Made by a program: the position numbers and the translations under genes
The notes under the pieces: generated by a model
Databases searched by the model: none
What the model saw: only the letters and a program-made list of their open reading frames with translations
Told to the model about the DNA's origin: nothing
DNA from: an uncultured virus (IMG/VR IMGVR_UViG_3300009514_001431)
Taxonomy: Duplodnaviria; Heunggongvirae; Uroviricota; Caudoviricetes
IMG/VR virus record: IMGVR_UViG_3300009514_001431
Reading direction: 5' to 3' (one strand)
DNA length: 64,000 nt
Shown: piece after piece, positions 13,225-61,325 of the stretch
How the letters are laid out: each line of letters starts with the position of its first letter
How positions within the stretch are numbered: the stretch's first letter is position 1

Positions 13225-14907
13225 CTACGTCGGTGAGACGAGGTATCGAGCCGCGACCTGAGCCGCCAGCTTATCATTGAGCCGGTTCGGGAACGCGGGC
13301 TTGTCCAACTCCTCGTCTGATGCCTTGAACCAGATATTGATCCACGTTCGCAGCTTCTTGACCGCCATTTGCAGCTTGGGGTCGGTGTAGGCGTTCCCGA
13401 CGTGCTCCGGGTAGTCCTCGACAGCCCTCAACAACGCGGCACCCATTTGCCTGACAACAGCATAGCTGGCTACGGCGACGTTGATCGTGGACTGCGGGAT
13501 GTCCTTTTGTTGTAGGAGCTTCATCCCCTCGCGCTTCGCCATCTCCATCGCACGCGGGGCGTTCTCACGGATGCTGGCGACGGATTTGTCCGCGTACTCC
13601 CGCATCCTGTCCATGTACTCAGGCTTGTAGTCGCTGAAATCGGTCAGACGTTCGGCGTACAGGGGGCGAGAGTATTCCTTGATCGCGTGCTCGATGATCC
13701 CAATTTCCTCTTTGACATGCCCGCGCTCTTGGTCACGGAGAGCTTTCCAGGTCCCAATACCAGACACGTCACGACCGAGGGATCCGAGGATGCAGTGAGC
13801 GGCCTCGGCGATGCGCGCGGCTCCGACCTCAAACTCAGTGATCCGACCGAAGCCGCCATCGGACGGAAGGCCGCCGTAGAGTTGCGTGCGGATCGGGCAC
13901 GAGTGCGCTTGTTTTAGTGTTCGACCCATTTTGAGCCTTGGGTCCGTTCGGAAATATCGCTTGTAGTGGAAGGTCGAGTAGTCACCGGGGTCGAGGTCGG
14001 GGTGGTCGTTGAGCACGTTCTCTGACACTGGCTTATCGGTAAGCAGGGCCGCTTCGACATATCGACGGTGAAGCTCCTTGACCTCGGAGCCCGCGTACTC
14101 CCCTATGTCGCTCCGCATACCGGGCCGGATTCTTCCGCTGATCAGTCCTGTGGGGTCGGGCCACATACGATGGGTAGAGAGCACATCGTCAGCATCCACG
14201 TCACGGTAGAGCACCGTCACGGACCCGCCGCCGGACTCTCGCCGTACCTCGTCGGTCGGCGCTTGAAAATGGATCAGTGGCTTGTCCCCGCCCCGAGTAT
14301 GTTCTGGGTCGCGGTGCGCGAACACAGCCCCGCCACTCGCCTTGAGCCCTTGACGAGCAATCTGTTCGACATTGCCTTTCGTGTAGTGGAACAGGCTCGT
14401 GTATCCCGGCTTGGGTTCCGGGTAGGGACGCATGAATTCGCGGAGACTAAGCTCCCACGGCATCCGTTTCCACAAATGAACCGTGCGGGCCGAGCCCATT
14501 GGAAACCACCGATGTTGAACCGGGGCCTTCCGCTTGTCCCAATCCAAGATGCCCGTGTACGTCCGCCCACCGATCCGGCGAGCACGTCCAACGATCGTGT
14601 TGGAGTGAACGGGCTCGACTCCAGGGGCCGTCGAGATTGTGATGTGGGGGTCACGGTTCTTTAGCTGGTCCCAGGGAGCGGGAAGCTCAACGGTGATCGC
14701 CTGTGCCTTGCCATCCTCGACGTAGCCGCTGGACCGCACCTTGACCAAGGTGCCTACCGGGAAGCTCTCCAGGTCGGCCTCACTCGGGTCGTAGCGCAGG
14801 GTGATGTGGTCCGCGTGTACGTTCTCGTGAATAGGCGGGTGCTCTTTGAGCAGCGCGCGGCGACTCGCGGGTGTCAAGAAGATGCCGATGTATTTAGGTA
14901 GGCCCAC
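13225..14907 (-). CDS. multidomain protein: 2H phosphoesterase + ART-like domain + helical domain; C-terminal VAARYL tag
   Basis: HITL and HITI 2H motifs; LFHYT..I.RQGL..VF; H..YVEAAL..KPV...VL.DHPDL; ends AAQVAARYLVSPT. Confidence 0.7.
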   Translation of the reverse strand: MGLPKYIGIFLTPASRRALLKEHPPIHENVHADHITLRYDPSEADLESFPVGTLVKVRSSGYVEDGKAQAITVELPAPWDQLKNRDPHITISTAPGVEPVHSNTIVGRARRIGGRTYTGILDWDKRKAPVQHRWFPMGSARTVHLWKRMPWELSLREFMRPYPEPKPGYTSLFHYTKGNVEQIARQGLKASGGAVFAHRDPEHTRGGDKPLIHFQAPTDEVRRESGGGSVTVLYRDVDADDVLSTHRMWPDPTGLISGRIRPGMRSDIGEYAGSEVKELHRRYVEAALLTDKPVSENVLNDHPDLDPGDYSTFHYKRYFRTDPRLKMGRTLKQAHSCPIRTQLYGGLPSDGGFGRITEFEVGAARIAEAAHCILGSLGRDVSGIGTWKALRDQERGHVKEEIGIIEHAIKEYSRPLYAERLTDFSDYKPEYMDRMREYADKSVASIRENAPRAMEMAKREGMKLLQQKDIPQSTINVAVASYAVVRQMGAALLRAVEDYPEHVGNAYTDPKLQMAVKKLRTWINIWFKASDEELDKPAFPNRLNDKLAAQVAARYLVSPT

Positions 14908-16986
14908 CTAGAACACCTGCTTGCCCTTCCGTCCAAGGTCGGCGTAATTGAGCACCTTCCCTGACCGATCAATGATCCAGCCCTCGTCGGGTTTCAGGTT
15001 GGGGGCCTTGAGGGCAACGGTCGCACTGTGCCCCCCACCGGGCCGCTGCGAAATGATCGCAGCTTCGGGGCCAAACCACTCGGGCCACTCCTTGACCAAG
15101 CGCTCCTGCAAGGCGGGCCACACGTCACGCTTGTGGCCTGAGATGCCCTTGAGGTTGGCAAGGTCGTGCAGGAACGGGTCGAGTAGAAATTGAAGGATAC
15201 GCTCGGCCGGAACCCACGGGTGCGGGGCGTACTGGTGAAGCATCTTCTCCATCGCCTTACGAACCACCCTCGTCAACCGATCGGCGTGACGCCGTACCTC
15301 GGCCTCGTCCATGTCATCGACCATCTCCGCAAAGGTTGAGGGCTTCCCATCCGCAATGGTGTCGTGAAAAGTGTTTAGGGTGCGGTCCAGCGTCTTGCCG
15401 AAGCGTAGAGCCATTTCGGTGTCGATTAGGATCTTGACGTGCTCGCGGCTGCCGTAGGGGACGTTGAGAAACAACGGGTACTGATCCGTTTCTCCCTTTG
15501 CCAACGCCCACAAGGCTCCGAGGTCTTGAGACAGGTTCCCCTTGTACCAGGCCGCACCCGAGTCGATTATGAAGCCACGAACCGAGGCCAACCAATCCTC
15601 GTCAGCCACGAACCGAGGATCGTTGGGCCGCATGTGGAACACAAGCACCAGACGCTCACCCCCAAACTGACGGGATGCTCGACCGGCATAGCTCGTCGCA
15701 ACTCCCGGATCAGGGGTCAGATAGATGTGCCCCGGCATCGGTCGATCCACATCGTCCTCAAACAAGCGACGTGCCGGGTCGCCTCGCAGTCCGCCTCGTT
15801 TGATCGCGTCCAGGTTTTCACTCGACGTGCCATGGTACAGGCGGCGCATGTGCCTGGCGTTCCGGTAGCGGGACGCGACCTTGGAGGCGGCCACCTGCTG
15901 CTCCTCCCTCTCGTCCAGCAAGACGTTGCCGTGTTTGTCTACGACGTAGAAATTCTTGCCGATACGATCCCGAAAGTTATTGACGAACAGATCGAGGGCC
16001 TGTGGGCTACGGTTGTAGTGAACAGTGATTTCGGTGGGGTTTTGCCAAGAGCCCTTGTCGTCAATCACCGCCGCAAACACGATCTTGTTCTTGCCCGTGA
16101 AGCCGATAGGGTCCATCGCCCGGACGTTGTGTCGATACGCGCCGATGTCGTCTGTCATCTCGGGCAACGCCCGAGACAGTGCTTCGACCTCTTTGCGGAG
16201 CCGGTGCCAAGTACCCTTCATCGAGCGGGGACGGTTTCGGATTGCAGCCCTCCATTGTTTGTGCTGCCACCCCTTCCGTTTGAGGTCTTGCTCAGAAGGG
16301 GCTGACCGCCACGCATCCGCACGCGCGTAGTCCTTGAGCTTTTCCGGCAGCCGTTTCATGGTCTGCCACAAATCGGTTTCTACGAGATGCAAGAAATAGG
16401 CTCGGGCGACTTGGGCCGCAAGCCCAACAAGTTGGTCCCTCTGGAGAAGGACACGGCGTTCACTCCGGGGAAATTCCTCAACGATTCGATTCACGATCTG
16501 TTTACCAGCATCGACAAACAAGCGTGACGAGTGGATTGCTTCGACGGCCTCTTGCAGCCGCATGGGATCGACCACGGTGCCCGCCCCACCCCACGTTTCC
16601 CGCTGGTCATACAACAGGAACGAGAACGGAGGTCTAAGGTCGTGAGCCGACCCCCCTACAGCACTCGACACGTAGCCGAGCAAGTCATCCTCGTCCGCGA
16701 GGGTGTTCGGGGTACGGGTTTCGTAGTTGACTGCAACGATTGCTCTTGGGGCTTTGGGGTTGACCCTGCCCGCCGCCGAGTACGCTGTCATCCATTCGTC
16801 AGTGAGGTACACTCCGCCATAGGTAGCGATCGATCGAGAAGCTGAGTCTGTCCGCAGATGCTTCCGATACATCTTCTCAGGATGCGTCGGGACCAGGCCC
16901 TTGCTCAAAATTCCACGCAGGTTTTTAGCACTCGTTCCGTGCCAAAACACCTTGCGGACAGCAAGCCTATGGAGTGGTGAGGTCAT
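14908..16986 (-). CDS. tandem ADP-ribosyltransferase-like (HGT/YLT) domain protein
   Basis: FWHGTS..NL..I...GL..GVYLT..ADED and LYHGTS.ENL..I..GGL..IYLT..ADED, joined by SKVASRY. Confidence 0.75.
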   Translation of the reverse strand: MTSPLHRLAVRKVFWHGTSAKNLRGILSKGLVPTHPEKMYRKHLRTDSASRSIATYGGVYLTDEWMTAYSAAGRVNPKAPRAIVAVNYETRTPNTLADEDDLLGYVSSAVGGSAHDLRPPFSFLLYDQRETWGGAGTVVDPMRLQEAVEAIHSSRLFVDAGKQIVNRIVEEFPRSERRVLLQRDQLVGLAAQVARAYFLHLVETDLWQTMKRLPEKLKDYARADAWRSAPSEQDLKRKGWQHKQWRAAIRNRPRSMKGTWHRLRKEVEALSRALPEMTDDIGAYRHNVRAMDPIGFTGKNKIVFAAVIDDKGSWQNPTEITVHYNRSPQALDLFVNNFRDRIGKNFYVVDKHGNVLLDEREEQQVAASKVASRYRNARHMRRLYHGTSSENLDAIKRGGLRGDPARRLFEDDVDRPMPGHIYLTPDPGVATSYAGRASRQFGGERLVLVFHMRPNDPRFVADEDWLASVRGFIIDSGAAWYKGNLSQDLGALWALAKGETDQYPLFLNVPYGSREHVKILIDTEMALRFGKTLDRTLNTFHDTIADGKPSTFAEMVDDMDEAEVRRHADRLTRVVRKAMEKMLHQYAPHPWVPAERILQFLLDPFLHDLANLKGISGHKRDVWPALQERLVKEWPEWFGPEAAIISQRPGGGHSATVALKAPNLKPDEGWIIDRSGKVLNYADLGRKGKQVF

Positions 16987-18527
16987 ACCCCTGCGAATTC
17001 TTGGATCATGCGCCGCTCAGAAGCGGTGCCTTGCATCCGGGTTCCGTCCGGCATTTTGACGTAGTGGAAGGTCGTCGGAAATTGAGCGAACCATGTGCCC
17101 TGGCTGGAAACCTTGTAGACGGTCTTGTTGCGCACGACGAACGCAGACCCGTCCTTGAACGTCACGTCAAGCTCACCCTCAAACGAGCTTTTGGACCACG
17201 AGCGCAGGGTGATCTCGTCCAGGTTCCCCTTGCCGGTGACGATGGCGCTGAGCTTCGCCGTGTTCTTTTGGATGAAGGCTTCGCGGATCGCTGCTGCCGT
17301 GTCCTTGCCCGCCTTCTCGGTCTGCGAACGCACGTTCCCCGGTGCCTTGTAAAGCACGACACGCGTCCCGTAGCCAAGGTCCAGCTTCTCGATGCGCTTC
17401 TTGTCAATTTCCAAGAAACGCGTGGCCTTCTCCGCCAGCGCTTTCCAGGTATCTCCCTTGCGACGGGCCTGCTCGATTTCGGGGGGAACGTCTTTGCTTC
17501 GATTCCAGGAATAACGAGGGGAACCGGACGGCGGGAACTTGGTCAAGTGCGAGGGCGTGGGTTTGCCCGCAGCTTTCCAATCCTTGAGCCACTGGTCGTA
17601 GATCGTTTTCTGGTAGGCCAGGAATTGATCCACGTCGGACTGGTAGACAGCCGCGAAATGTTCTTCGACGGCTTTCAACTGCTTGGCCGTGAAATCCAGC
17701 AAAGCCTTTTTCACCTTCTGATCGAACGTCCGCCGGATCCTTTCCTCGGGCGTCTCGATCTGTTCCTCAGAAGGGAGGTCGGCACCTTCCGCCTCTAGGT
17801 ACGCGGTGGCCTCTTGTTGGAGCCCACGCATGTAGAGGCTGTTCCAGAACTTGCCCGCTTTAATCGCCTTCACGTCCAACGCCTTGATCCCCTTGTTCGG
17901 CTGCACCAACGTGATCGGCTTCTTTTTCGTGCCTTTGAGCTTCGGGTTTGCCACTGACCACACGCGAAGGTTCAACCACACCCGAACGCTCAGTACCCAC
18001 AGACCTGTTTCTCGCTCAAAGACCTGCCGGGTCGCCCGGTCGCGCACCCGCTCACGTTGCGGCTTGATCTCTGCGGCAACAGTGCAGCCAAGCTCCCCCG
18101 CCTTGTCGCTATTCAAATTCCCCAAAGCGCGTTGGATCTTCTTGAGGATGTCCTTGTCCAGCGCTGCCACCGTGTACCGTGAGATCCCAACCGATCCACG
18201 GTAAGGGCCTCGCGCACCCGTCGTCGTAGTCACAATGACCGTATCCGGCCCCAGATCTTCGCCACGGTCCAGAACCTTAGTGCCGGCGCGCTCGACTTGC
18301 TTATGCAACCACTTCGTACACTCCCAAACACCTTTGTCCTCAAGCACCGTGCCTTGGACCGTCTCGGTCACATCCCAACCCAGGGCTTCGCACGCGGACG
18401 CCATGCCCTCGGCGTCGATCAGAGGTTTGGCTCCGGCAGCGGCCTCCCGCATGAAGCGAGCCCCGACTCCCGTGATGGAAGCCGCAAGGCGGTAGTAACT
18501 GGCGACTCGTTTGGCGGAAACATTCAT
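16983..18527 (-). CDS. hypothetical protein with N-terminal KRVASYY tag
   Basis: 514 aa, starts MNVSAKRVASYYRLAAS. Confidence 0.8.
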   Translation of the reverse strand: MNVSAKRVASYYRLAASITGVGARFMREAAAGAKPLIDAEGMASACEALGWDVTETVQGTVLEDKGVWECTKWLHKQVERAGTKVLDRGEDLGPDTVIVTTTTGARGPYRGSVGISRYTVAALDKDILKKIQRALGNLNSDKAGELGCTVAAEIKPQRERVRDRATRQVFERETGLWVLSVRVWLNLRVWSVANPKLKGTKKKPITLVQPNKGIKALDVKAIKAGKFWNSLYMRGLQQEATAYLEAEGADLPSEEQIETPEERIRRTFDQKVKKALLDFTAKQLKAVEEHFAAVYQSDVDQFLAYQKTIYDQWLKDWKAAGKPTPSHLTKFPPSGSPRYSWNRSKDVPPEIEQARRKGDTWKALAEKATRFLEIDKKRIEKLDLGYGTRVVLYKAPGNVRSQTEKAGKDTAAAIREAFIQKNTAKLSAIVTGKGNLDEITLRSWSKSSFEGELDVTFKDGSAFVVRNKTVYKVSSQGTWFAQFPTTFHYVKMPDGTRMQGTASERRMIQEFAGV

Positions 18528-18529: not shown

Positions 18530-18976
18530 TCAGTCCCCCGGCATCTTAGTGAGCTTGCGTCCGTGCCGGTCAAGCTCACCTCTCATGTGCTCACGCTCGG
18601 TTTCGGCAACCGTGAGTCGTGTCTCGTGTTTGGCCTGCCCTTCTTTGAGGGAGTCAAGCCGCGCGAAGGTCTTGGTCTGAAAGTTCTCCAGCTTCTCGCC
18701 CTGCGCCCTTTCACTCTCGTAGATTTTCGATTTGAGGATGTCTGTCTGGTCAGTGACCATTCCGGCAATTCGATCCAGCTTGTTCGCAAGCTCCTTGCCG
18801 TCCTCACGCTGCTCCAACCGATCTTCCTTCTGCTTGTTCTTGGCCGATTTCACATCGTCCGCATTTCGACCTGCCCTGAATTTCAGCACGGCCAACGTCC
18901 CGCCGATGCCCATGACGAGGGTGATCAACGAGAGCAACACCTTGAGATCGAGGGTGACGGATTCAGCGAGCAGCAT
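18530..18976 (-). CDS. single-TM coiled-coil protein (holin/XhlA-like architecture)
   Basis: from MLLAESVTL; TM then long heptad region ending HETRLTVAE. Confidence 0.6.
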   Translation of the reverse strand: MLLAESVTLDLKVLLSLITLVMGIGGTLAVLKFRAGRNADDVKSAKNKQKEDRLEQREDGKELANKLDRIAGMVTDQTDILKSKIYESERAQGEKLENFQTKTFARLDSLKEGQAKHETRLTVAETEREHMRGELDRHGRKLTKMPGD

Positions 18977-20672
18977 CGGAATTCTCCAGGTAGCGCGAAG
19001 CGACGCGAGAGGTTGAGGCCACGGCGATGCCTGGCACAGACTCGATAACCTCGGTAAGCGCATCGAGGTTTTGCTTGGAGTAAGGGATTAGTCTTTTTCC
19101 AGGTTTCTGACCGAGCACCTTGATCTGCTCAGAGAACGAAGGGGACTCCATGCTGAGAACCCACCCCCCACGGCGAGCTTGAAACCCCGCATCCATGAGC
19201 GCAGACAACACCGTCTGTACCTCTTGGTCGAGGGCTCGTACACCTACCCTGATGTCGCTTTGCGTGATCTCCCCCGAAACCGGGAGCCGAATGGTCACGT
19301 TCCCATCAGGAAAAACGAACGCCTGTGCTCGCTGTCCTCGGTAACGGGCCAGGTAAACGCAGGCAACCTTCGCGGCCGAGAAATACTGATCGATCTTCCG
19401 AACGTAAGAACGGACAGCCGTAGGGCCAAATTTGGACATCTCCAGAAGCTCCTTGATCTTATCCCCGCCGCGCTTCCACGCATCCCTGTAGATCCGTTCG
19501 GCCTTACCGGCAGGGAGCCGGTGAGCCTTCTCCACTGCGGCGAACAACTCGGGAACCGTTAGGCTCGGGTACGACAGGTCGATCCCAAGGTCACGGAGGT
19601 TGAGCGACGACCCGTGCTCAGCGAGAAATCCCTTACGGGAGTACCACTTACCGCCCCACCGAACCCGCTTGATCTGAGAAGGGCGGACGAGGCCACGTAG
19701 CAATGCTTGCGGCTCGTGCTCGTTGTCGAGGGACAACGAAAGAGCGGGCCTAAACGACTCGGGGTACTGGTCGCGCAGCCACGCCCTAGTCTCAGGGTCT
19801 ATCCTCGGATCCCGCCGCCCAATGGTGCCGCCCCAACTGGTTCCGTGCAGATGCTTGGCCGCTGTCTCAATTTCAAGAAGCACATCTCCGAATTTGTAGG
19901 CTCCCTTGGGATCCGGGGCAACGAACAGCCCGGCATGGCGAGGTGCGTTGTAGTGGTGCTTGACCACTTTGTTCGCATCGAACCCGTTGATCAGATGCCC
20001 GATCTGGTTCGCGTGCGTACCGTGGTAAACCGTCATCACCGTATTCGGTTGGAGGGCGGCGCGTCCCTGCTTGAACGCTGGAACCCTGCGTTGGTACAGA
20101 CGCTTGGGGATCCCGTTAACCCCTACGATGTACTCAGGCGCAACATCGACCTCAAAGGCCACCACACCCCCTGGCCGTGAATCAGGTCGCCCCACGGTTC
20201 CAAGAAGCCCCCACGCCTCAAAATCCAGAGGGATGTCTACCGTGACGAACGGGGCGTCGTTGCTATGTCGCCCCCCTTCCCGATCACTTGGGTCGGCGAC
20301 CACAAAGAAGGTCGCATTCGGATTTTCAGAGTGCTTACCCATCCCTCCCGGTTGAGCTTTGAGCCCTTGGCGAAGAATACGATCGATGATCGATGTGGCG
20401 GGCACGCGCATAATGCTGTGGTGCAGCCGTAGATGCCCTGGCTTCGGCCGAGGGAGAAACTTGTGACTGTTCTGTGCGGCAAGGATGTCCGCGATCCGTT
20501 GGACCATCGCCTGTGCTTCGGGGTTTTCATCGAAAACATCCGTGAACCGCCCGCCCGAAAGCAGGGGCAGGAGCTTCTCGATCGAGTCCACATCGTAGAC
20601 CGGGTTCCCTTTTTCCGACCAGTAGTGCGCAGCAGCGAGGGCCTCACGCGGGACTGTGACTGCGACACGCAT
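18963..20672 (-). CDS. protein with two ART-like domains and two tag copies
   Basis: LHHS..I.RQGL..FF and VYHGT..GF..GLFVA; internal AAKVACVYL, C-terminal SRVASRYL. Confidence 0.7.
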   Translation of the reverse strand: MRVAVTVPREALAAAHYWSEKGNPVYDVDSIEKLLPLLSGGRFTDVFDENPEAQAMVQRIADILAAQNSHKFLPRPKPGHLRLHHSIMRVPATSIIDRILRQGLKAQPGGMGKHSENPNATFFVVADPSDREGGRHSNDAPFVTVDIPLDFEAWGLLGTVGRPDSRPGGVVAFEVDVAPEYIVGVNGIPKRLYQRRVPAFKQGRAALQPNTVMTVYHGTHANQIGHLINGFDANKVVKHHYNAPRHAGLFVAPDPKGAYKFGDVLLEIETAAKHLHGTSWGGTIGRRDPRIDPETRAWLRDQYPESFRPALSLSLDNEHEPQALLRGLVRPSQIKRVRWGGKWYSRKGFLAEHGSSLNLRDLGIDLSYPSLTVPELFAAVEKAHRLPAGKAERIYRDAWKRGGDKIKELLEMSKFGPTAVRSYVRKIDQYFSAAKVACVYLARYRGQRAQAFVFPDGNVTIRLPVSGEITQSDIRVGVRALDQEVQTVLSALMDAGFQARRGGWVLSMESPSFSEQIKVLGQKPGKRLIPYSKQNLDALTEVIESVPGIAVASTSRVASRYLENSDAAR

Positions 20673-21175
20673 CAGAAATACTTACTCCCAACGGTGCTCG
20701 GAGCGCGGCCCTTGTCCGCGAGTTTCTTGTACTCCTGAAACAGCTTCCACACGGCAGGCTGCATGATCTTCCCCCAATGGATGATCTCGGCGTTCCGGTG
20801 GCGCTTGTAGAATTCAGCAACGAGACGGCGAGCATGTCCGGCCCCTCGATGGTCATGCCGGGTGCTGATGTAGTCGAGGTACCAGCCGTCCCCGCCCCAA
20901 TTGTGGTAGTCGAGGAACGCAACCGTACCGGGCTCCGCCCCCTTGGAGTCAAGCACGGGTTTCTTGAGTCGCCGAGGCTTTCCGCGATTCGTCCAGGTGC
21001 GGTACTGATCCGCAAAGTAGCGGTCGTGCTTTCCAGGCTCGGAGATCGACGGGTCAACCAAGGCGAGCCGTTGGACGTTGCCTGATTTATGGTAGACGAG
21101 CGGCGACGCCCCTTGCTCGACCACCTGGAGGGCGGCCGTCAAATGTCTCGCAGCTACAAGCATCACCGTGGGCAT
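20672..21175 (-). CDS. GNAT-family acetyltransferase with N-terminal VAARHL tag
   Basis: VAFLDY..YLDYISTR.DHRGAGHARRLV matches the acetyl-CoA-binding motif A (R-x-x-G-x-A). Confidence 0.75.
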   Translation of the reverse strand: MPTVMLVAARHLTAALQVVEQGASPLVYHKSGNVQRLALVDPSISEPGKHDRYFADQYRTWTNRGKPRRLKKPVLDSKGAEPGTVAFLDYHNWGGDGWYLDYISTRHDHRGAGHARRLVAEFYKRHRNAEIIHWGKIMQPAVWKLFQEYKKLADKGRAPSTVGSKYF

Positions 21176-21375
21176 TACGGCACCGGCCCCGGTGTCACGT
21201 CGCCGTTGCTCACACCGTCGAGGGTGTTCTCAGGGGCGCCGTCGTAGAACGTGTTGGGCTGGCCGAGGTAGTCCCCCTCTTGCCCGGCTTGGTAGGCTTC
21301 GATCCGGTTAATCCGGGCTCGCCGGTTAGCGGCAGCCCGAGCACGCGCCAGCCGAATGTTTTGCGGCGAGGGCAC
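21175..21375 (-). CDS. small protein with Arg-rich N-terminus
   Basis: 66 aa, GTG start after GGAG, TAATG overlap. Confidence 0.65.
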   Translation of the reverse strand: MPSPQNIRLARARAAANRRARINRIEAYQAGQEGDYLGQPNTFYDGAPENTLDGVSNGDVTPGPVP

Positions 21376-21381
21376 GTCGCA

Positions 21382-22254: not shown

Positions 22255-22299
22255 CCTACTCCAAGTGATCCATAGGCTGAATATCGCGTGAAATTCCGG

Positions 22300-23941: not shown

Positions 23942-23943
23942 GG

Positions 23944-51000: not shown

Positions 51001-54000
51001 CCGTGCCGGTGATGTCGATCGAGGTATTCGCCGACGAAACCGTGATGTCCGAGCCCGTGGCGTATGCGGTTTGCAGGGACGTGGACCCAACGCCGATGGC
51101 GGTGTAGGTCAGAGCGGCCGTGTTGTCTCCGTCCGCAACCTCCCACGATCCCGCGTTGCAACGGAGCACGCAGATGTCAGCCTTGTAGAGCGTGCCCGTG
51201 GCAGTCGCGTCCGTGGGCATGTCCTCTTTGAACATCCCGTCGATCGGGGCAGTCGAAAAGCCAGCGACCTCGATCTTGTTGGTCGAGCGAGCCGTGACCT
51301 GCCACAGTCCATTGAGGCATTCCGGCGTGCAGCCCTCGGCGATAATGAAATCGCCGACCGACACACCCGGAGTCGCAGCCCCGTCCACGTCAAAGAAGGC
51401 ATCCGCGCCACTCTGAGCATTCGACCCCGTGATCGTGGATCCAGGGGTGAACGTGTTGGCATCCGTGACCACACAGATGCCGCCCGCCAAGGCCGTGCTC
51501 GGAACCGGAGACGCATTGATCGTCAGGTAGTTCTCGTGAGACGAAGCGTCCTTGCCGAACATGTGGTACTCGGTCGCCCACTGGTGGTGGCCGTAGTCCA
51601 CAGGCGCATCGAACCGGAGACATTCACCGGCCATGTCGATGTCACGACCCGCCGTAATGTCCACGTCGCTGGAGCCACCCGACAGGATCGTGACCTCGGT
51701 GCCCGCCGCGATGTCGATCGACGTGCCAGCGGTGAGGTCGATGTCCGTAGACCCGGACGTGATGTCCACCGAGTCAGCGGTGGCCGAGAAATTCGACAGG
51801 TTGTCGAACACAGCCAAGTCCCCGCCCGTGTCGGCGGTGATCAACAGAAGGCTGTTCGTGCCGTCCGTGACATCGAAGGTTGCGCCCGTCGCCGTCTCGG
51901 CCAGGTCAACCGTAACCGAATCACCGGCCGCAGCCGCAGCAACGGTCAGGATGCCGGTGTCCCCCGAATCCGAGAAACGCATCGAGCTACTGTCGGGGAT
52001 ACCCCATGACAGGTCCCCCGCCGCTTGCGTCCAAGTCGGATCCGCAGCGATCTGATTGTCCACGACCTCTTTGAGAGTGTCGCTCGTCGCTACATCGTCC
52101 AAGGTTGCCAGGCGTACCCAATCGCCGCCGGAACCCGTGCCCGACGTGTCGTTGAGCCAAAGCTCCGGGGTCGTCGCTGCGTTGACCACTACTGCCAGCG
52201 AGCCCGAAGGCGCACTGTGCGTCGGGTCGGCTGCCTGATCCATCGAGAAGACACGGAAACCGTGACCACCGCCCGTGCCACCGCCCGAGTTGAGGATCGT
52301 AAGAACCGCATCTTCCGCATCGACGTTTGCGCTGGCCGGAGTGGAGATGGCAACCGGAGTGGCCGCACCGCCTGCACCGGGCGTACCACCCACGATGCTC
52401 ACGTTGGGAGCATCGTTGCCCGCTCCCGACGAAACACCGCCCGTGATGGTGGTGCTGTACGTGCTCGCATCCGAGGCGGTACCCGCGTTCACGTCCACGG
52501 TCGTACCCGCGTCGATGTCGAGTCCCGTTCCCGCCGTGATGGCGATGCTGGTGCCCGAATCCATATCCACGGCATCTACGGAATTGAGGATCAAATCCCC
52601 AGACGTGAGCGTGGTAACGCTCAGGTCGTTGCCGGTTACGGAGACATTGGAAGCAAGCGTGCCGTCGATGCTGAATGCAGCCGCATCCGACGTGAAGCTA
52701 TCGACCGCCGAACCGAACGCGATGATCGAGCCAGCCACCGAATCATCGGAGTCACTGGTCACCGTGAGCAGGGCCGCACTGGCGCTGTCGCCAAGCTCCC
52801 AGGTGTTGTCCTGTCCGATGTCCAGGGTGTGATTGACCGTCGTGGTGACGATCGTGGCACCCTGGTTGTCGTACACGTCCTGACGGTCAGCCGACGTGAC
52901 GCCCGCCGCGTCGAGCTTGGTCCAAGTGGTGCCCGAGGTAGTCGAGGTATTGACGTAGACCTCGCCGCCGGAACCCGTGTCTCGCATGTAGATCGAGCCC
53001 GCCAGGCCATCGACAGCGCCCGCTTGAGGCTCAACCGTGCCCGCGAACAACTGGACCGTCTGGACCGTGTTCTCAAGCTGAACGATCTCGTGGGTGTGGT
53101 CGCCACCGCTGACGAGACGAACCGTGCCGCGCGTTCCGGCTGCACCGGATCCGCCGACGCCGGGGGCACCCCCCGACAGAACGACATCGCCACCATCGGC
53201 GTTGTCTGAGGTTCCGGCGCCAGCACCACCGGCACCACCCGTCATGGAGGCGTCGCCGCCCGCAGCCGGTTGAGCCGGGTCCACCGTGCCTGCTTGACCA
53301 GCACCGCCCGCGCCAGCCGTAAGCGAGACGTTGCCGCCAAGGCCAGCGTCTCCGCCGAGGCTGCCGCCCGAGTCGGTGCCATCACCAGCACCGCCCGCGC
53401 CGGCAAGGAAAGCCAGGCTTCCGCCCATGCCTCCCGCGTCCGGTGTGGCACCTTCGGCTGCCGCACCGCCCACACCAGCGTCCACGGTCACATCGCCGCC
53501 ATCGCCGCCATCCGAGCCGGAGCCACCGGCACCACCGTTGCCCGTATTGATGTCCAGCGTTCCGCCCGCGAAGCCTGCGGACCCGATGCCCGTGGTCAGG
53601 TCAAGCTCACCACCCGCACTAGACGAGCCAGCGCCAGTCGTGACTGTCACACCGTCTGCGGTACCCGCCGTGATCGCCACGGCATCGGCCGAGGTCACGT
53701 TCAACTGGCCGCTCGTGACCGTCTGGAGGGTCAGAGTGTCGCCGGTCGCCCGAATGTCGAGCGCGGCAGCACGGTTGACCTGACCAGCGGTGAGGCCAAC
53801 CTCGATGCCGGTCGAGCCCGAGTCGATCGTCATTCCGTTCAGGAAATCGACGGTCGTGGCGTTGTTGTCGTAGTCCGATCCGTTGATCTCGACCTCGGAG
53901 GTCGTGACCGAGGCCGTGCCGAGCGTGACCTTGACGCTACCGCCAGCCCCCTGCGTGATCGTCTCGATGCGAGCGAAGCTGGCGTTGGTACCCGCTTCCT

Positions 54001-54865
54001 CCCACTCCCAATGATCGCCAGTGGTCTGGGAGATGTCGATGTCGTCGGTCTGTGTGGCGATGGTCCCGTACTGGTTGTCCATCGCCTGATCGAGCGTCAC
54101 ATCGACCGTCGCCGTTTGATCGACAAAGTTGCGCGTCGAAAGATTGCAGTCCTCTTGGAGCAGATCGAGCGTCGTGCGGAAGATGTAGTTGTAGTTGATC
54201 GACTTGTTCTCGATGTCGGCAACCGGGCAAGCCTCCAGGTCATCGAAGCCCGCGTCCGGGCGAACGAACGAAATCTGACCGTCGTTGGTACCCCCACCCG
54301 TCGTCCACGCCGCACCGTCCGTCGCACCGTTCTTGACCTGGAGCAGACCGTACGCATCACGCCCCCCCGACTGGATCTTCTGACCCGTCGAAGAATCGCG
54401 GATCTCCAGAAGGTTCCGGGGGTGAAGCTCGTCAGGGCCAGTGCCCGTCCCACCGTGCTCGTACATTTGGTGCGTCCCAAGCTCAGCCACCCCAAGCTCG
54501 GCACACAAAGCACCATTGGTCGAGGTTCCGAAAGCGACAACCTCACTCGGTACCTCACCACCCCCAAGCTCGACCCAGTTCTGGCTACTCGGAACGGAGA
54601 TGTCGGTCAGGACGTTCGCGTAGCAGAGGATTTTCTTGTCCTCCAGATCCGAAAGGTCGGTGTCCAGAGTCTCGACGGTACGAGTTACCGCCGTGTACCA
54701 CTTGGTCGCCCCCGTGACGTTTTGGATCTGCGAGATGATCGAATTGATCACGTCGTCAAGATCGGTCGGAGCGGATTCCAGGGTCGCCCCTGCTGCAAGA
54801 GTGTCATCCCAATCGGCGGTTTCTTTGGTGTCTACCTGCTTGGGCCTTACGAACGTGGTGGTCAT
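48038..54865 (-). CDS. very large acidic Gly/Thr-rich virion fibre or decoration protein (2275 aa)
   Basis: repeated L.Q[AV][YM]DN junctions, Gly-rich arrays, C-terminal VYVNG..G.GND..GDVI.V domain. Confidence 0.8.
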   Translation of the reverse strand: MTTTFVRPKQVDTKETADWDDTLAAGATLESAPTDLDDVINSIISQIQNVTGATKWYTAVTRTVETLDTDLSDLEDKKILCYANVLTDISVPSSQNWVELGGGEVPSEVVAFGTSTNGALCAELGVAELGTHQMYEHGGTGTGPDELHPRNLLEIRDSSTGQKIQSGGRDAYGLLQVKNGATDGAAWTTGGGTNDGQISFVRPDAGFDDLEACPVADIENKSINYNYIFRTTLDLLQEDCNLSTRNFVDQTATVDVTLDQAMDNQYGTIATQTDDIDISQTTGDHWEWEEAGTNASFARIETITQGAGGSVKVTLGTASVTTSEVEINGSDYDNNATTVDFLNGMTIDSGSTGIEVGLTAGQVNRAAALDIRATGDTLTLQTVTSGQLNVTSADAVAITAGTADGVTVTTGAGSSSAGGELDLTTGIGSAGFAGGTLDINTGNGGAGGSGSDGGDGGDVTVDAGVGGAAAEGATPDAGGMGGSLAFLAGAGGAGDGTDSGGSLGGDAGLGGNVSLTAGAGGAGQAGTVDPAQPAAGGDASMTGGAGGAGAGTSDNADGGDVVLSGGAPGVGGSGAAGTRGTVRLVSGGDHTHEIVQLENTVQTVQLFAGTVEPQAGAVDGLAGSIYMRDTGSGGEVYVNTSTTSGTTWTKLDAAGVTSADRQDVYDNQGATIVTTTVNHTLDIGQDNTWELGDSASAALLTVTSDSDDSVAGSIIAFGSAVDSFTSDAAAFSIDGTLASNVSVTGNDLSVTTLTSGDLILNSVDAVDMDSGTSIAITAGTGLDIDAGTTVDVNAGTASDASTYSTTITGGVSSGAGNDAPNVSIVGGTPGAGGAATPVAISTPASANVDAEDAVLTILNSGGGTGGGHGFRVFSMDQAADPTHSAPSGSLAVVVNAATTPELWLNDTSGTGSGGDWVRLATLDDVATSDTLKEVVDNQIAADPTWTQAAGDLSWGIPDSSSMRFSDSGDTGILTVAAAAAGDSVTVDLAETATGATFDVTDGTNSLLLITADTGGDLAVFDNLSNFSATADSVDITSGSTDIDLTAGTSIDIAAGTEVTILSGGSSDVDITAGRDIDMAGECLRFDAPVDYGHHQWATEYHMFGKDASSHENYLTINASPVPSTALAGGICVVTDANTFTPGSTITGSNAQSGADAFFDVDGAATPGVSVGDFIIAEGCTPECLNGLWQVTARSTNKIEVAGFSTAPIDGMFKEDMPTDATATGTLYKADICVLRCNAGSWEVADGDNTAALTYTAIGVGSTSLQTAYATGSDITVSSANTSIDITGTVNDSTTLLNLLAGNHTAGTGGSLLTATDDASSTGTMVALTSNGSGTAFDVLQTGSGDLITARTSSQTIFEVDGLGEVLITPLTGTDFTATTLTTGNIDFDTASGNFTFDSTAGAFSFDAVAPSNLSLNGGTSASTVNLDLAVTNGGAGQSEVNISANNTDVTGNNSLVTIDAASTAGSGTVTVTADTTINVSNDTETVTGNLFTGNAAKTVNLITGTTAGSLTALTGAGHTGTFGDITNTLAMQVNSSTAVGLDVGGSVTIDMTPTGTNAATDWVITFPTKNVVEASALTKVSNSKNGIVNINTSNMNYGNGASEGDIYGVYGGGNQGYTSTTGTTSGTIHVLSTVAATVTNSVAFTAGVSSTSDAQIEVSSGDGANFSVGDIIIVAGSTDAENDGLYAISAIATDVLDVEGMSTALSEEFLQAQVFTNAADTSATVAQVNLTMFRTDASGNLVFRENFNVVGGTDSSLNASTLEQAYEDVGTSPAVMSASFQSQVSDGDTRDWTTTATQNLLAVSAAGGGDSVTLGFGAGAGGGDTVNVNSQTFDVTSDANSFSAGVSVDDNGGTNTIHVGANTGGGAADTIRFAGTSGTVEASAGALTLQSTLAGSKVDIVTADGATVGDVEINPGSATAATVDGAGFTVLTGQGNTSGNSGAISLGTDDANGTATSVSGTVSLVTGDNGDIAGSGSGSMSFTTGGLPLGGTAGYSGGMSFTTGSAAATGAGPTGKSGAMDFFTGSNTLGAAGGFSVTVGSSAASGEAANVGNISLSASANAGTDGSGNITFSPGLNSSSGAAGILRMIPPASTSGANGYITIDSDLAITEELLKLDNTGAAANGVDIDLFAASVTPVSNITGNPGDVTFRSNGTSSGFWIHKGSGSDSTSWEEVTTSGNNLTRTVGQVTVNTTIAAGTDVTTSNTDAVNNDLPDHSAATFATEVAVYVNGIRMLQGSGNDVIAGTTPSNGDINFPSLGLISGDVITVEVWTNQT

Positions 54866-54894: not shown

Positions 54895-55368
54895 CTACTT
54901 GCGAAGGAAATCCACGAGAATGGCGTCCCCTGTCAGCGGGACGTAGGTGAACGTGATGGTGTCGAAGCCAGTGCCGGGGCCACCGGACTCCGAAGCGGTG
55001 AAATCGTTAGCGGAGCCCTCGTTTTGACGGACTCCGTTGACGGTGACGCGCATCTCGATGCCCGCCGTTGTTGAATGGAAAGCTGTCGCACTCGCATTGA
55101 GTGTGAAAATAGACGTGATACCGTTAGCCTGTGCCGAGAGGTCGTCCGTGATGTACGGACCCATCGGCACCCACCCCGTCGTCCCACCCGAAACGGCCTG
55201 CTTGCTGTAGATCGAATTTCCGAACGTCCCATCCGTTCGGAGGAACACGTCCCCGATGTTTCCAGTCTCGGATCCTTCGGGGTCGCCAGCGCCAATGTGA
55301 ATCGCCGGAATCCCGCCCGACCCGATCAGGGCGAGTAGGAATCCGTAGTTCGTGCTTGACGTGACCAT
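54895..55368 (-). CDS. small virion structural protein
   Basis: GAGDPEG..GNIGDVFLRTDG module plus V.VNGVRQ..G..NDF domain, both shared with the 2275-aa protein. Confidence 0.75.
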   Translation of the reverse strand: MVTSSTNYGFLLALIGSGGIPAIHIGAGDPEGSETGNIGDVFLRTDGTFGNSIYSKQAVSGGTTGWVPMGPYITDDLSAQANGITSIFTLNASATAFHSTTAGIEMRVTVNGVRQNEGSANDFTASESGGPGTGFDTITFTYVPLTGDAILVDFLRK

Positions 55369-55458
55369 GCCGCTTAGCGGCCTGGACGGCCGCTCTCACA
55401 AGGAGCGGCCCGATAGACAGAATCGCGGGGTTTCGCGGGCTCGGGCAGCTTCGCCCGC
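55369..55458 (-). promoter_or_regulatory. structured intergenic leader (three hairpins)
   Basis: gccgc-tta-gcggc (55369-81), ggccgctc-tcacaag-gagcggcc (55388-410), cgggc-agcttc-gcccg (about 55442-57). Confidence 0.5.
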
Positions 55459-55473
55459 GCTATGTCCGCACAC

Positions 55474-56349
55474 CTACTCGCCGAGGTAGCGCATCGCCAC
55501 GATCCGCGCCGATGCGGTGCGTTGGTCCGCCGACGCGACCCGATACTTGCCAAGGTTCTTTTCCAGGCTCGCCATCTGCTTGTCGGAAATCGGAAGACCC
55601 TCGGCCAACCTTTTCCCTACGTTCGCCAAGAAATCCATGAGCCATTGGTCCCCGCGCCGCTTGGCCTCGGAGTAGAGCTTGCGCGCACGCTGGTACAACG
55701 CCTCGTCGCGCTGGCTTGCGGGCTCAACAGGCTCGGCAACGGGCTCAGAAAAGGATCCCGACGCCTTTCCGATCGCAGCCTTCTGCTTCTTGGTCAGGAT
55801 TCCGCCACCCTCCAGCTTGCGGTGGAAATCAGCCAGCATCCTGTTTGACCCCCAATTCGGGATCGCTTCGATCTCGGCCAGCGACTCGGCCTTGTACGCA
55901 TCCCGATCAGCGATCTCTGCCAGGGAATCGTAGAACGTCGCAGCCTTGTCGTAAGCCTGCTTCATCGCCTTCACGCCCTTTTGCATGACCGTCGCGCGCC
56001 AGTTTTTCGTGCGGTTGAACCGCGACTGACCAAGGGCCTTGCGATTCAGGGCGTACCCCGTGACCGCACTCACCAGCTTCATGTGGATCGCGGCTTGACC
56101 GCGCCCCATGACCTGCTCACTTTGGCCGATGGAGGACGAGATGTGGATCGCTACAGTGCCCTTGAGGCTCGCAGGGAGCTTCGGCGGACGACCCTTCACC
56201 CCTGATGGGGTTGGGGGGCGCGGCTCTCTATTGAGCATGAGTAGGTAGACGCCCTGTCTGTTCTCGTCCCGCGCCCACGGAAGGCGAGTCGAGTCGAGCC
56301 AGTCCTCCCATTCTTCTCGGGAGATCGGGACGAAATGCCCTCCAGCCAT
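55474..56349 (-). CDS. hypothetical protein with C-terminal IVAMRYL tag
   Basis: from MAGGHFVPIS (TGATG overlap with the helicase); two [LI][TS].KQ helical repeats; ends TASARIVAMRYLGE. Confidence 0.8.
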   Translation of the reverse strand: MAGGHFVPISREEWEDWLDSTRLPWARDENRQGVYLLMLNREPRPPTPSGVKGRPPKLPASLKGTVAIHISSSIGQSEQVMGRGQAAIHMKLVSAVTGYALNRKALGQSRFNRTKNWRATVMQKGVKAMKQAYDKAATFYDSLAEIADRDAYKAESLAEIEAIPNWGSNRMLADFHRKLEGGGILTKKQKAAIGKASGSFSEPVAEPVEPASQRDEALYQRARKLYSEAKRRGDQWLMDFLANVGKRLAEGLPISDKQMASLEKNLGKYRVASADQRTASARIVAMRYLGE

Positions 56350-59300
56350 CAGTCCAATTCCTCGTTGGTTTTGAACCATTCGGCTTGGAACTCGTCCTCG
56401 TCGTCCTCGTCGTAGGTCCACTCGTCGGCCAAAGGCCCGCAAGACACCCGCTCAAACTCTTTGTCGCCTTGCAGGAACGCGAGCACGTACTCCGGGTCGC
56501 GGTAAATGTCAGGCGGGTCTTCGACAGAGGCAGTCGCTCCGACATTCGTGATGCACGCCTCGCCAACGAAACGACTCGGAAGGATCGGCTTCGGTGGCTT
56601 GGTTTCGCTCACCTGTGGCCCACGCGCCGGACGAATGATCGTGACCGAATCCTCGCCACGGGTGATGGCGACATAGGCCAGGCGGCGCTCGGCCTCCATC
56701 TCCTTGCCACCCGTCCGCGAACCATCGTCCTCGGTCATAATGTGCGGGAATCGTCCTTCCCACATGGGAACGAACACATGCTTGGCCTCCAGGCCCTTCC
56801 ACCCGTGGACCGTATCGACGCGCACGGCCGGAGGCGGAGGCTTTTTGCCCTTCATCACATCTCCGGTGCTGCGCTCGTCGTCACCCACAGCCAATTCCTC
56901 GGCCCGCCCTTGCATGACATTGATATAGGAGACTGCCGATGAAAGCTCGTTGTGGTGCTCCGCCATCGCTTCCAAGATGGCGATCTCGCCGCGAGCGTAC
57001 TGCTCAATGGACTCGTCGTCGGTGTTCTCGTACTCGTTGAGCACCTCTTCCATTTGCTCCTTGGACGCCTTCACGCGCTCCATGAGCCTTTCGATCATCG
57101 AGCCCTGCGGAGTCTCCAGCTTCATGGCGAAATCGATCAACGCCATGGTCGTGAGCTTTTCCTTCTTGGCTTGCTTCTGAACCGCCGTCAGGAAATCCGT
57201 GTAGGGCTTCACGAAATCGTCGTTGCGGTGGGCCGCACGACCACCATAGATGTTGTCCCAACCGCCACCTTGAAGGTACTTGAGCCAGTTGCCTGTTCCG
57301 GCTCGTTCCTCCAGGCGCTCAGGGAACGTCGCCCCCAACTGGAAATTCAACGCCTTGTGGGCCGTAGCCACGACCTCGTTGATCGTTTCGGTGTCCCCCT
57401 CTTTCGCGTTGGCGAGCCGCATCAGGCCAATCAGGGTGACGACGGCAGGCCCCTTGAAAAAGTTGTGCTTGGATCGGAACGGGATACCCCGCTCCACCAT
57501 CGACACGCCGTACTCCATCGCCTCTTTGCGAGTGCGGACCAGGAGCCCGTAGTCGTCGTAGGAACCCTCGGCAGCGTCCCCCTGGCAATCGTCAGCGATC
57601 ACGTCCGCCACGTACACGGAGAGGCTCTCAGGAGAAGGCAGTACCCGCTCCACGATCCGACCCTCGCCCTTGCGCTCGACGTTGGCAAGGCACTCCATGG
57701 GGATCTGCTTGCCCGCTTCCTCGTGGACCCGCATGAGATTGTTCGCAGCCTGCACGATGGCCGACCCCGAGCGGTAGTTCATCGTGAGCAGCTTGGTCTT
57801 GAAACAGTCGCGGGTCTTGCCCACGAATTCTTCGACCTCCGCTCCGCGAAAGCCATAGATGCTCTGCTTGTCATCACCGATGAACGAGAAGGTGTCCGCC
57901 GTCATTTCGCAGTCCTCGCGTGGCTCGACGGTACGAGGATCGATCTGACCAGCAACCAAGCCAAACAGGACGTGCTGCGACGGATTGAGGTCTTGAGCCT
58001 CGTCAACGAGGACCACCTTGTACCGCTCGTTGACGCGAGCGAGCACGGACGGTTCCTCGATCAACATGCGCGAGGCTTGGATCAGAACGTCGTCAAAATC
58101 CTCGTCCCCATCCTGGTGAAGCAGGAATTCGTAGGCGGCGTAGACGGCAGCCTCGACGCCGGGGGTCGCCATCTCGTGCTCGATACGGCTCATTTCCTCG
58201 TCAGGGTCCACCATCTCCGCACCGCCCATGCCCTGTTGCCGGGGCTTAGCCTTGGCAGTGTCCTCGGCGTATGCCTTACCCGGAGCTTTCAGGCGGCCCT
58301 TACTGCCCGTGATGTAAAGAGCAAACTCGCCCATGCTCCTTGGCTTGAGTCCCGCGTAGGGATTGTCTGGAGTCGGCTCAGCGTCGCTAAAGGGCTCCGG
58401 CTCCATGAAAGCCGTGGCAGGCAGCCCGAGGTTGAACCACTGATTCGCAGGGCGCTTCGCATACGCCGGGAACTTTTCCTCCAACGCATTCAAGATGCTG
58501 GCGCTGAACAGCTTGTCCGAGCCGGCGGGGAAGCCTGCCGCCTTACGCACCGCCGCCGGGGGAGTGCCCGGCATCTTCCATGGGGAGCCCTTGCCGCCCC
58601 AATACTTGATCACACCCTTTTTCTCTACGGAATCGAGGTCTTTCCAGGTCGTGTACTCACCTGTGTCGAATTTCTGGAACAGGTTTTTGATCAGGGCGAT
58701 ACTGTCCTCGGCCTTGGTCACCTGTGCGGAGAGGCGGGCGCCCTTCGCCCACGACAAGAACGAATTGGCATTGCGCAAGGCTTCCACCAGCTTGTCCACG
58801 ACCTTGTGCGCGGGGGATTCGATCGGAACCGGGAGCTTCGCGTAGGTCGTGTAGACGTGGTAGAGGATACGTTGCTCGGTCGGGGAGAGGTCCGAAAGAC
58901 CCGCTACCTCGTCCTTCTGAACACGGGTCCGCAGGGCGGAGAGCCACCCCTTCGCCCACCTGGCGCGCGCTTCGGCGATTCGGTTCTCACGAGCCGCCCA
59001 CCGAATGTAGCCCTCGATCTTGCTGGAGGCGTTGTCAAGCTCAGCCAGGATCTCGTCCTTTGCAGGCCCGGAGGCAGTCCCTCCTTCCTCCCAATGCACC
59101 CTGTCAGGGCGATTGGGAAAAAACGACTCGTCGGGGTCATGGCCCGCAACGTCCGAGGACGGGTTCTGCATCACCTGGAGGATGGCGCACCGCATGAGCC
59201 ACGACTGCTCGGCATCCTTGATCAGCCGACCCTGGCGCTCCCACTTTCGACCGCCCAATCGCCGCAACTTGCCCGCAACAGAGTGCGTGGACCCAAACCC

Positions 59301-60449: not shown

Positions 60450-61325
60450 TCATCTCGCACCGGACGCGAGACGCGTTCGGTTTTCGTAGACAGTGAGCCA
60501 CTGGTTGAACGGGGGAAACTCCGGCTCGGTTGCGATACGGACCTGCCCATAGGTGTCTTCGTACCAATCAAGATGCCCGTCGATGTTGAATTCATCGACC
60601 CCCTCGGGCGCTCTCCCCAACACGCGAAACACGATGGCATAGATAACCTCGCCGATCGGCAACGTGGCAAGAGCCATGTACTCCTTGTGCCCGGTTACAG
60701 CGACCAGGATCGAAGGGAGCAGGAAATGCTCAAAGATCTCAAACAGGGCAAACCCGACTCCGAGCTTCCACCCGTGCTTCTTGACGGCTCGGATAATCGC
60801 GTCCAGCGTGTGCTTCGGGCTGACAGCCTTCCACGCTTTGCGAGCAGCCGTTTCGATCATGCGCGGGGCCATGTGGACCCGGAATTCACGAACGGCATCC
60901 TCGACTACCTCGCGCTTCACACGAGGCGGGAGGTTGCGCCCATCGAACGAATCGTGGTTTGCGTAACCCCACTCGTACCCCTCCAAGTAGTCCTCGGTCA
61001 CGTCGTCCGAGGGGCGCGGCGGGTTGGCGAGGATCTGCTTGTCCGCGTGCCACTTGCCAAGAACCGCTCCGTCCTTGAACTCGTCTACGTCAGCATCGAC
61101 CTCGTTCTCGGCGACCACTTTGAGCAGCTTCGGCGCGATTTTACGGATCGCTTCCTCAACTAGATCCTCGACTGGCCCGTAAACGAATTTGCGGTGATGC
61201 CGAACGATCTCGCCAAGAGGTTGAACGATCCAATCCAGCCAATCCTTGAGGCTGGCCTCCCGGCGCATATCGCGGTGTTTATCGCGGTACCTAACCACGA
61301 CGTTTTGGATCGACGCTCGGCGCAT
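60450..61325 (-). CDS. hypothetical protein with tag-like N-terminus and hydrophobic segment
   Basis: starts MRRASIQNVVVRYR; FEIFEHFLLP..LPIGEVIY hydrophobic hairpin. Confidence 0.75.
   Translation of the reverse strand: MRRASIQNVVVRYRDKHRDMRREASLKDWLDWIVQPLGEIVRHHRKFVYGPVEDLVEEAIRKIAPKLLKVVAENEVDADVDEFKDGAVLGKWHADKQILANPPRPSDDVTEDYLEGYEWGYANHDSFDGRNLPPRVKREVVEDAVREFRVHMAPRMIETAARKAWKAVSPKHTLDAIIRAVKKHGWKLGVGFALFEIFEHFLLPSILVAVTGHKEYMALATLPIGEVIYAIVFRVLGRAPEGVDEFNIDGHLDWYEDTYGQVRIATEPEFPPFNQWLTVYENRTRLASGAR

Follow-up and report, generated by a model that had tools for sequence, protein, structure and literature searches.

Why does one short peptide recur at the ends and domain borders of otherwise unrelated proteins in a tailed phage genome, and what does it do there? 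The question is raised by a 64,000-nucleotide stretch of DNA (here called the window) from an uncultured member of the Caudoviricetes (IMG/VR record IMGVR_UViG_3300009514_001431). A preliminary description, made from the sequence alone, listed a VAxR[YHW]L-like peptide on about ten proteins encoded between positions 13,225 and 61,325 and proposed it as a tag for loading enzymes into the capsid. We conclude that this peptide, which we call the motif or tag, recurs far above chance, is under selection at the peptide level, is placed at termini and junctions, and is conserved among orthologues. It is limited to certain phages that are related by shared genes; the capsid protein of at least one of them, G001, is of the phage G type. 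As to its function, we consider it a little short of evenly probable that the motif is a portable docking helix on effector-type modules that binds one common receptor, perhaps for loading into the procapsid.

The motif recurs far above chance in the window

The window holds 73 called open reading frames (ORFs), which comprise 20,346 amino acids. Their proteins contain VA.R[YHW]L 6 times, against a mean of 0.03 (maximum 1) in 200 shuffles, and the broader [VI]A.R[YHW][LR] 8 times, in 8 proteins of differing Pfam content, against 0.20 (maximum 2) in 200 shuffles. The preliminary description would have been refuted by a frequency no higher than in shuffled proteins; the frequency is far above that. 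A six-frame control (127,996 codons) places 8 matches in called coding frames and only 2 in all other frames. Four of the strong sites are C-terminal, two are N-terminal, and two are internal, and the consensus reads (S/A)-x-(R/K)-V-A-(S/A/T)-R-(Y/W/H/F)-(L/A). A profile trained on the 8 strong sites, and thus a test of the remaining sites only, gives scores of 17.7 for AAKVACVYL, which aligns with KVASRW and RVASRY in relatives, and 13.4 for SAKRVASYY. Ligase, tmk, Dam, UvrD, amidase, and the fiber proteins of the window have no match by pattern or profile, which bears out the absence already noticed for ligase, tmk, Dam, and the fibers.

Every peptide quoted in the preliminary description lies at or beside the coordinates that it gave, with AAKVACVYL in frame at 19350-19376, and its list holds for the 8 strong sites and for 2 weaker, plausible ones (AAKVACVYL and SAKRVASYY). 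ASVVERY and the N-terminal IQNVVVRYR drop out as copies: the profile misses both, and in two relatives discussed below (L038 and G001) the orthologue starts downstream of IQNVVVRYR. Third codon positions differ among sites (GTC/GTT/GTG, GCG/GCT/GCA, and CGA/CGC/CGG/CGT), in agreement with the earlier claim that a peptide rather than a DNA repeat is conserved. Because synonymous codons vary between copies, one of which lies on the opposite strand, selection acts on the peptide. A caveat on the enrichment in the window is that the pattern was picked after the data were seen. In a blind enumeration of exact and reduced-alphabet patterns the motif was not top, and fiber repeats and low-complexity runs came first. 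For both of these reasons, decisive support must come from relatives.

Relatives and large phage genomes

Searches of GenBank phages by megablast and tblastn gave no close relative of the window, and neither did a scan of species genomes or one of IMG/VR for which two single window proteins served as queries; a metagenome scan yielded 49 loci, numbered here with the prefix L, from which the contig of the window itself is absent. One of these, L026, shows synteny with the window over 18.5-23.3 kb. Orthologues retain the motif while the flanking sequence diverges, and terminal tags, with 2-10 residues beyond them, are conserved among orthologues at 38-67% identity. Four consecutive tagged ORFs follow right after the UvrD gene in L030, an arrangement as in the window.

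Among 8 non-self homologues of the HAD protein of the window, the motif occupies a single alignment column in 6, and two distant homologues are without it. Three stand-alone homologues end in GRVASRYLDR, RRVASRYTDR, or GRVAARWLDRTGR, and three HAD-2H fusions carry RVASRW(L/M) exactly at the junction. For domain X, the ART-like module of the window protein encoded at 18963-20672, the protein collection yielded 8 homologues other than itself, in which the module is joined to NUDIX, ART-PolyVal, or topoisomerase IB; a motif-like peptide flanks it in 6 of the 8, the strict [RK]VA.R[YWFH] in 4. A single 620-residue protein (L038:8843-10705) unites the module formed by residues 336-516 of the window protein at 13225-14907, the GNAT encoded at 20672-21175, and domain X; its joints read HLAALF/RVARRY, RVVARF, and KVLGRW. 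Genes that are separate in the window are fused modules elsewhere, with a motif-like peptide where they meet. The enzymes tagged in relatives include NUDIX, tRNA nucleotidyltransferase, topoisomerase IB, and zincin-like modules. The proposal of a portable, position-independent peptide on unrelated enzymes thus gains support from the conservation in orthologues, from the HAD tails and HAD-2H junctions, and from the fusion joints.

G001 is an IMG/VR record of 297,104 bases (67% complete by CheckV; 280 called genes, 91,232 amino acids) with homologues of 16 of the 73 window proteins at 30-47% identity. RVA.R[YWFH] occurs in it 23 times, against 0.28 (maximum 3) in 100 shuffles, and the broader pattern 38 times against 4.7, in 26 proteins along the whole genome. 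Serine stands at position -3 in 18 of the 23 sites, though this position lay outside the search pattern, and the extended consensus is (A/P)S(A/P)S-RVA(A/S)R(Y/F)(A/L). Five sites lie near N-termini, 2 near C-termini, and 16 are internal; one 1519-residue protein bears five tags. Leucine follows the aromatic residue in 7 of 8 window sites against 4 of 23 in G001 (Fisher p = 0.0009), a comparison in which the window pattern permitted only L or R; with VA.R[YHWF] the count for the window is 6 of 7. At the DNA level, codons for RVAxRY number 15 on the coding strand of G001, 0 on the opposite strand, and 0 for a reversed-pattern control, with varied synonymous codons. A DNA repeat as the explanation is ruled out by this variation at synonymous positions, in G001 as in the window.

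Among the tagged proteins of G001 are a tRNA nucleotidyltransferase, a HAD-topoisomerase IB protein, a GNAT, a NUDIX protein, two ART-PolyVal proteins, and a C39-like peptidase; no tag is present on its DNA polymerase, helicases, primase, ligase, terminase, portal, protease, or capsid protein. The first two of these tagged proteins are encoded in the interval bounded by the portal and prohead protease genes, and the major capsid protein gene is just downstream of the latter. Weak RVAS-type matches occur in a small acidic protein of this head module and in the C-terminal extension of the protease; they are suggestive only.

The capsid protein of G001, which is of the HK97 type and the phage G type, shares 84% identity with its counterpart in LR745208.1 (485 kb, uncultured), 50% with that of Tunturiibacter phage Tunturi_5, 41% with that of Bacillus phage G, and about 30% with those of cluster C mycobacteriophages. 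In LR745208.1, RVA.R[YWFH] occurs 7 times against 0.28 expected. The capsid protein itself (290 residues; G001 23342-24226, L066:4354-5226) has >2000 homologues at E <= 1e-10, and identities range from 85 to 99% over the 119 non-self homologues listed among the best 120, whose contigs reach 372 kb; this points to a very widespread, highly conserved type of capsid in uncultured large phages. Between the prohead protease and capsid genes, G001 21055-22431 encodes an extremely acidic protein of 458 residues with four repeats of EEASDEEEAKGKKARALRAKALRMLRLADE, likely a scaffold with repeated amphipathic helices.

The motif is not part of domain X. A domain-X profile search of 1.84 billion representatives gave 384 matches; 55 of the proteins fetched had the HGT..NGFD signature, 53 of them with enough upstream sequence, and the motif lies upstream of the domain in 6 (tight pattern) or 10 (loose pattern) of these 53. 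That the motif belongs to this ART-like domain is ruled out by the low proportion. A Foldseek search with the domain-X model returned weak ART-fold rows only (best E = 0.018). In the AlphaFold2 model of the L002 domain-X protein, the core has a pLDDT of 84-97 and the two tags are helices at a pLDDT of 34-57; in that of the window HAD, a core at 83-98 is followed by a linker and a terminal helix (residues 172-180) with a pLDDT of <50. These models suggest, with low confidence, that the tag is a short helix outside the folded domains. A complex prediction for a 40-residue tag fragment, the capsid protein, and the acidic scaffold-like protein, all from G001 (score 0.15, mark 0.32), speaks neither for nor against binding.

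Candidate roles of the motif

The tagged modules of the window (ART-like, GNAT, HAD, and 2H) are of the kinds that elsewhere are strung together as "polyvalent proteins." In the motif, V, A, and then the aromatic residue and L/A four residues on would share one face of a short amphipathic helix, with Arg beside it, and a helix that follows a Ser/Pro-rich stretch outside the domains would have the anatomy of a docking peptide. All tags would bind one phage-encoded receptor, as is suggested by the conservation of end-of-protein tags, the confinement to related phages, and the genome-specific flavors of the motif. They would gather the enzymes in the procapsid, and the enzymes would enter the next host with the DNA. 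Docking fits better than cleavage because orthologous stand-alone proteins retain a tag at their extreme end, followed by 2-7 residues, and capsid loading is our best guess because the modules are of the polyvalent type, predicted to be delivered by the virion, and because the portal and protease genes of G001 flank the genes of two tagged enzymes. More tentatively still, the RVAxRY helix may be a position-independent cargo-loading peptide of a tailed-phage capsid, comparable to the loading peptides of encapsulins, one that would define, by sequence, the injected enzyme kit of uncultured large and huge phages and also serve as its reshuffling joint. Docking and processing roles could coexist.

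The set of proteins injected with the DNA has been established for no more than a few model phages, and it decides the encounter with host defenses during the earliest minutes of an infection. If the motif were a marker common to all injected proteins, effector kits could be read from the metagenomic genomes of uncultured huge phages, and the traffic of modules between single genes and giant polyvalent proteins would be explained. A true loading signal would also be a small, portable handle with which to place chosen proteins in phage capsids.

By analogy, the motif may work like the T4 capsid targeting sequence or the cargo peptides of encapsulins and microcompartments. The T4 sequence and the N-terminal targeting of the P1 Dar proteins are, like the motif, short peptides common to unrelated proteins of one phage; they occur on fast-evolving proteins with an early role in the newly infected host, and they are specific to phage clades and transferable in principle. 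The T4 signal is strictly N-terminal and is lost when the prohead protease cleaves at (L/I)xE, whereas the motif is N-terminal, C-terminal, or internal, with no conserved Glu after it and no (L/I)xE-type cleavage signature. Encapsulin and microcompartment peptides are short, terminal or interdomain (and helical in microcompartments), and load diverse enzymes into a shell, which in encapsulins shares the HK97 fold with phage capsids. The motif is similar in that AlphaFold2, at low pLDDT, predicts a short helix that is terminal or between domains and outside the enzyme fold. The consensus of those peptides differs from the motif, and no encapsulin or microcompartment shell gene appeared in Pfam scans of the window and the scanned part of G001. 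MIX-type markers of type VI effectors are conserved markers on polymorphic effectors, from which effectors can be predicted by sequence; unlike the motif, they are longer, domain sized, and N-terminal only, and they serve another delivery machine.

Polyvalent proteins have been predicted to be delivered by the virion (Iyer et al. 2017, PMC5512222, and 2022). As in the polyvalent proteins described in the text of the 2017 paper, ART, GNAT, NUDIX, zincin-like metallopeptidase, and 2H modules are freely combined in long polypeptides of the relatives, and several modules can share one polypeptide (two ART-like modules in 14908-16986, three modules in 18963-20672, and three in the 620-residue protein of L038). 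In contrast to polyvalent proteins, the window modules are mostly separate genes or proteins of 2-3 modules. The most frequent hub domain of polyvalent proteins is an embedded zincin-like metallopeptidase. A MuF domain had no match anywhere in the proteins scanned. In the passages searched, the 2017 paper mentions no module-punctuating peptide and has 0 occurrences of "linker" or "short motif"; papers on NAD-ADPr and on jumbo phages likewise make no mention of such a motif in the passages searched, and six hexapeptide strings were without a match in papers. The preliminary description had not recognized the motif as a described signal, and the literature searched agrees. The motif is a real feature, undescribed in that literature, and neither its sequence, its position rule, nor a shell gene makes it a member of the T4, encapsulin, or microcompartment families.

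Several observations weigh against docking for virion loading. Pfam and PHROG scans found no capsid, portal, terminase, or protease gene in the window, where the tagged array is surrounded by ligase, tmk, Dam, and lysis genes, and most tagged genes of G001 lie outside its head module. Tunturi_5, which is cultured and has a capsid protein half identical to that of G001, has no motif excess. No conserved untagged neighbor, as a receptor candidate, is common to three or more of the tag-bearing loci, and no receptor was found. An internal helix of ART domains (FVxPD..VA.RF) matches the loose VA.R[FY] and gives 12 of 27 matches; loose versions of the pattern are therefore not specific. Finally, zincin-like HExxH modules are embedded in the tag-punctuated polyproteins of L026, L014, and G001, as would be predicted of a processing site (in L026 in the protein of L026:7275-9560), and these polyproteins have no Pfam zincin match.

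Such a site, at which a zincin-like metallopeptidase or the prohead protease would cut polyvalent proteins into modules, with the end copies as trimmed pro-peptides or leftovers, is an unlikely explanation but the strongest of the alternatives. If correct, it would give polyvalent proteins their first cleavage motif to be defined, as far as we know; at present their processing is a prediction. The internal placement of 16 of the 23 G001 sites, in large multimodule proteins, is in its favor, the small residues A/P-S-A/P-S ahead of RVA would suit a scissile region, and self-processing of polyvalent proteins has been proposed (Iyer et al. 2017, PMC5512222). However, cleavage at the conserved terminal copies, with their 2-10 residues beyond, would bring no obvious gain, the window has no convincing HExxH/zincin module, and the motif is modeled, at low confidence, as a helix rather than an extended linker. 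Nor is it a general prohead-protease site, since the capsid protein, portal, protease, and acidic scaffold-like protein of G001 lack the tight motif. We find it distinctly unlikely that the helix docks to a partner outside the virion, whether this belongs to the host (a target or a machine, such as RNA polymerase, ribosome, or membrane) or is a phage hub for RNA-repair and NAD/ADP-ribose enzymes in the infected cell. RNA-repair and ADP-ribose enzymes are indeed prominent in the tagged set (HAD_SAK, 2H, Tpt1-like, ART, NUDIX, and tRNA nucleotidyltransferase), most tagged genes have metabolism and replication genes around them, and a membrane-anchored coiled-coil protein (18530-19063, 67% identical in L026) is encoded inside the array. 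Against this stand the two tagged enzymes within the G001 head module, and a typical membrane-binding amphipathic helix would be longer than seven well-fixed residues and less specific. Because only some of the related phages have the motif, with flavors that differ by genome, its receptor would be phage encoded rather than a universal host protein.

A passive joint, that is, a linker helix without a binding partner that is kept because module-shuffling recombination occurs there, is improbable. Homology between proteins does break at the motif; internal ends of BLAST high-scoring segment pairs lie <=30 residues from internal motifs in 90 of 243 cases, against 35 expected, and two proteins give 78 of the 90. 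The recurrence of identical extended junctions in single genomes, RPMP(K/R)YMGKVASAARVASRY twice in L030 and ASRVASRFRRMEAG twice in G001, also favors such a joint. Free synonymous variation, however, leaves slight DNA homology at the motif, and the terminal copies on single-module proteins join nothing and are still conserved. Chance resemblance among helices of an Ala/Arg-rich proteome has on its side the post hoc choice of the pattern, the blind enumerations that did not rank the motif first, and the look-alike helix within ART domains. It is contradicted by the shuffle and off-frame controls, by the independent recurrence in G001 and LR745208.1, and by the same-column conservation in HAD homologues, and we consider its probability negligible.

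Tagged genes of the window and their surroundings

The window has a G+C content of 61%, and its genes lie almost entirely on the minus strand. By Pfam and PHROG scans, it encodes a DNA ligase, a thymidylate kinase, a Dam-type methylase, a 1362-residue UvrD helicase, and an amidase. An effector-type gene run occupies 13.2-23.3 kb (a weak 2H phosphoesterase protein, a PARP-like/Tpt1-like ART protein, a weak GNAT, and several unknowns), and a HAD gene at 35.4 kb belongs to the "Swiss Army Knife RNA repair" family.

Within the run, all but one of the tagged genes are on the minus strand. The 560-residue multimodule protein of 13225-14907 has a weak 2H phosphoesterase match at its N-end, a module (residues 336-516) common to L038 and G001, and a strong C-terminal tag, AAQVAARYL (13240-13266), 5 residues before the stop. 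The 692-residue protein of 14908-16986 has two ART-like HGT modules, with a PARP match at residues 11-37 and a weak Tpt1/KptA match at residues 376-401; its strong tag ASKVASRYR (15862-15888) lies between them, 8 residues ahead of the second LYHGT. A 514-residue protein of unassigned function (16983-18527) carries the weak N-terminal copy SAKRVASYY (18492-18518). The three-module protein of 18963-20672 (569 residues), with domain X at its center (residues ~205-440), has the degenerate copy AAKVACVYL on the C-side border of that domain and the strong C-terminal tag TSRVASRYL (18987-19013). The weak GNAT of 20672-21175 (167 residues) bears the N-terminal tag MLVAARHL (21140-21166), and its GNAT module (residues 24-150) sits fused behind RVARRY in L038 and G001.

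The 290-residue protein of 21382-22254, Arg/Lys-rich at its N-end, has an internal strong tag, AVIATRHL (21661-21687), which the L026 orthologue keeps as VRLAKRHL, adjoining a 35-residue indel (a deletion in L026). About half of its first ~75 residues are Arg or Lys (MIVRTAIYKPRKRKRQRRQRGRSKQ...), an acidic stretch follows, and identity in L026 is 42%; this N-end resembles a nucleic-acid-condensing core protein. On the plus strand, the gene at 22604-23305, whose likely true start is the Met at 22604, has the N-terminal tag KLRVATRHL (22619-22645); its L026 orthologue (58% identity) begins MMRPSPARVAAMHL, against MDRPSKLRVATRHL in the window.

Two further tagged genes, both on the minus strand, lie outside the run. 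The 181-residue HAD (HAD_SAK_1; 35362-35907) ends with AGRVASRWL (35371-35397). The protein of 55474-56442 (<=322 residues), encoded just downstream of UvrD, has the C-terminal tag ARIVAMRYL (55483-55509), where its orthologues in L030 and G001 end in RRAFMAW and RRAHIVGW. Stop read-through after the C-terminal tags is ruled out, as the HAD gene and 55474-56442 precede intergenic DNA; among the C-terminal tags of the window, only that of 13225-14907 abuts an in-frame start. After 55474-56442 comes a G+C-rich inverted repeat that resembles an intrinsic terminator (55350-55470; GGGCCGCTC...GAGCGGCC) and that precedes a tail-fiber-like gene at 54895-55368. The UvrD-type helicase of L030 (L030:2-4636) contains an intein/Hint insertion at residues 705-1048 (Pfam Intein_splicing and Hint).

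The small protein encoded inside the array at 18530-19063 (minus strand) has one hydrophobic helix and a long coiled-coil-like tail, and it is the best conserved protein of its region (67% identity to L026:6812-7282). Its true start is probably downstream of the ATG at 19063, since the ORF overlaps the end of 18963-20672. In L026, the closest relative of the tagged array, NAD+ salvage genes adjoin the array (L026:1340-3820; nicotinamide phosphoribosyltransferase and an NMN adenylyltransferase-NUDIX protein). The protein of 60450-61325 (minus strand) has two hydrophobic helices near its C-end and homologues at L038:8037-8840 and G001 108676-109479; these homologues lie directly upstream of the tagged polyprotein and have a tag-like tail (...EQVAYRYCTGR), which the window copy lacks. 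Finally, 36184-54865 (minus strand) encodes giant, Gly/Thr/Ser-rich, fiber-like proteins of 1055, 1613, and 2275 residues, with a ConA-like lectin protein among them at 39354-40844. Internal repeats of this region, GG.(hydrophobic).(hydrophobic)(S/T), are the most overrepresented pattern in the proteome (17 against 1.3 expected).

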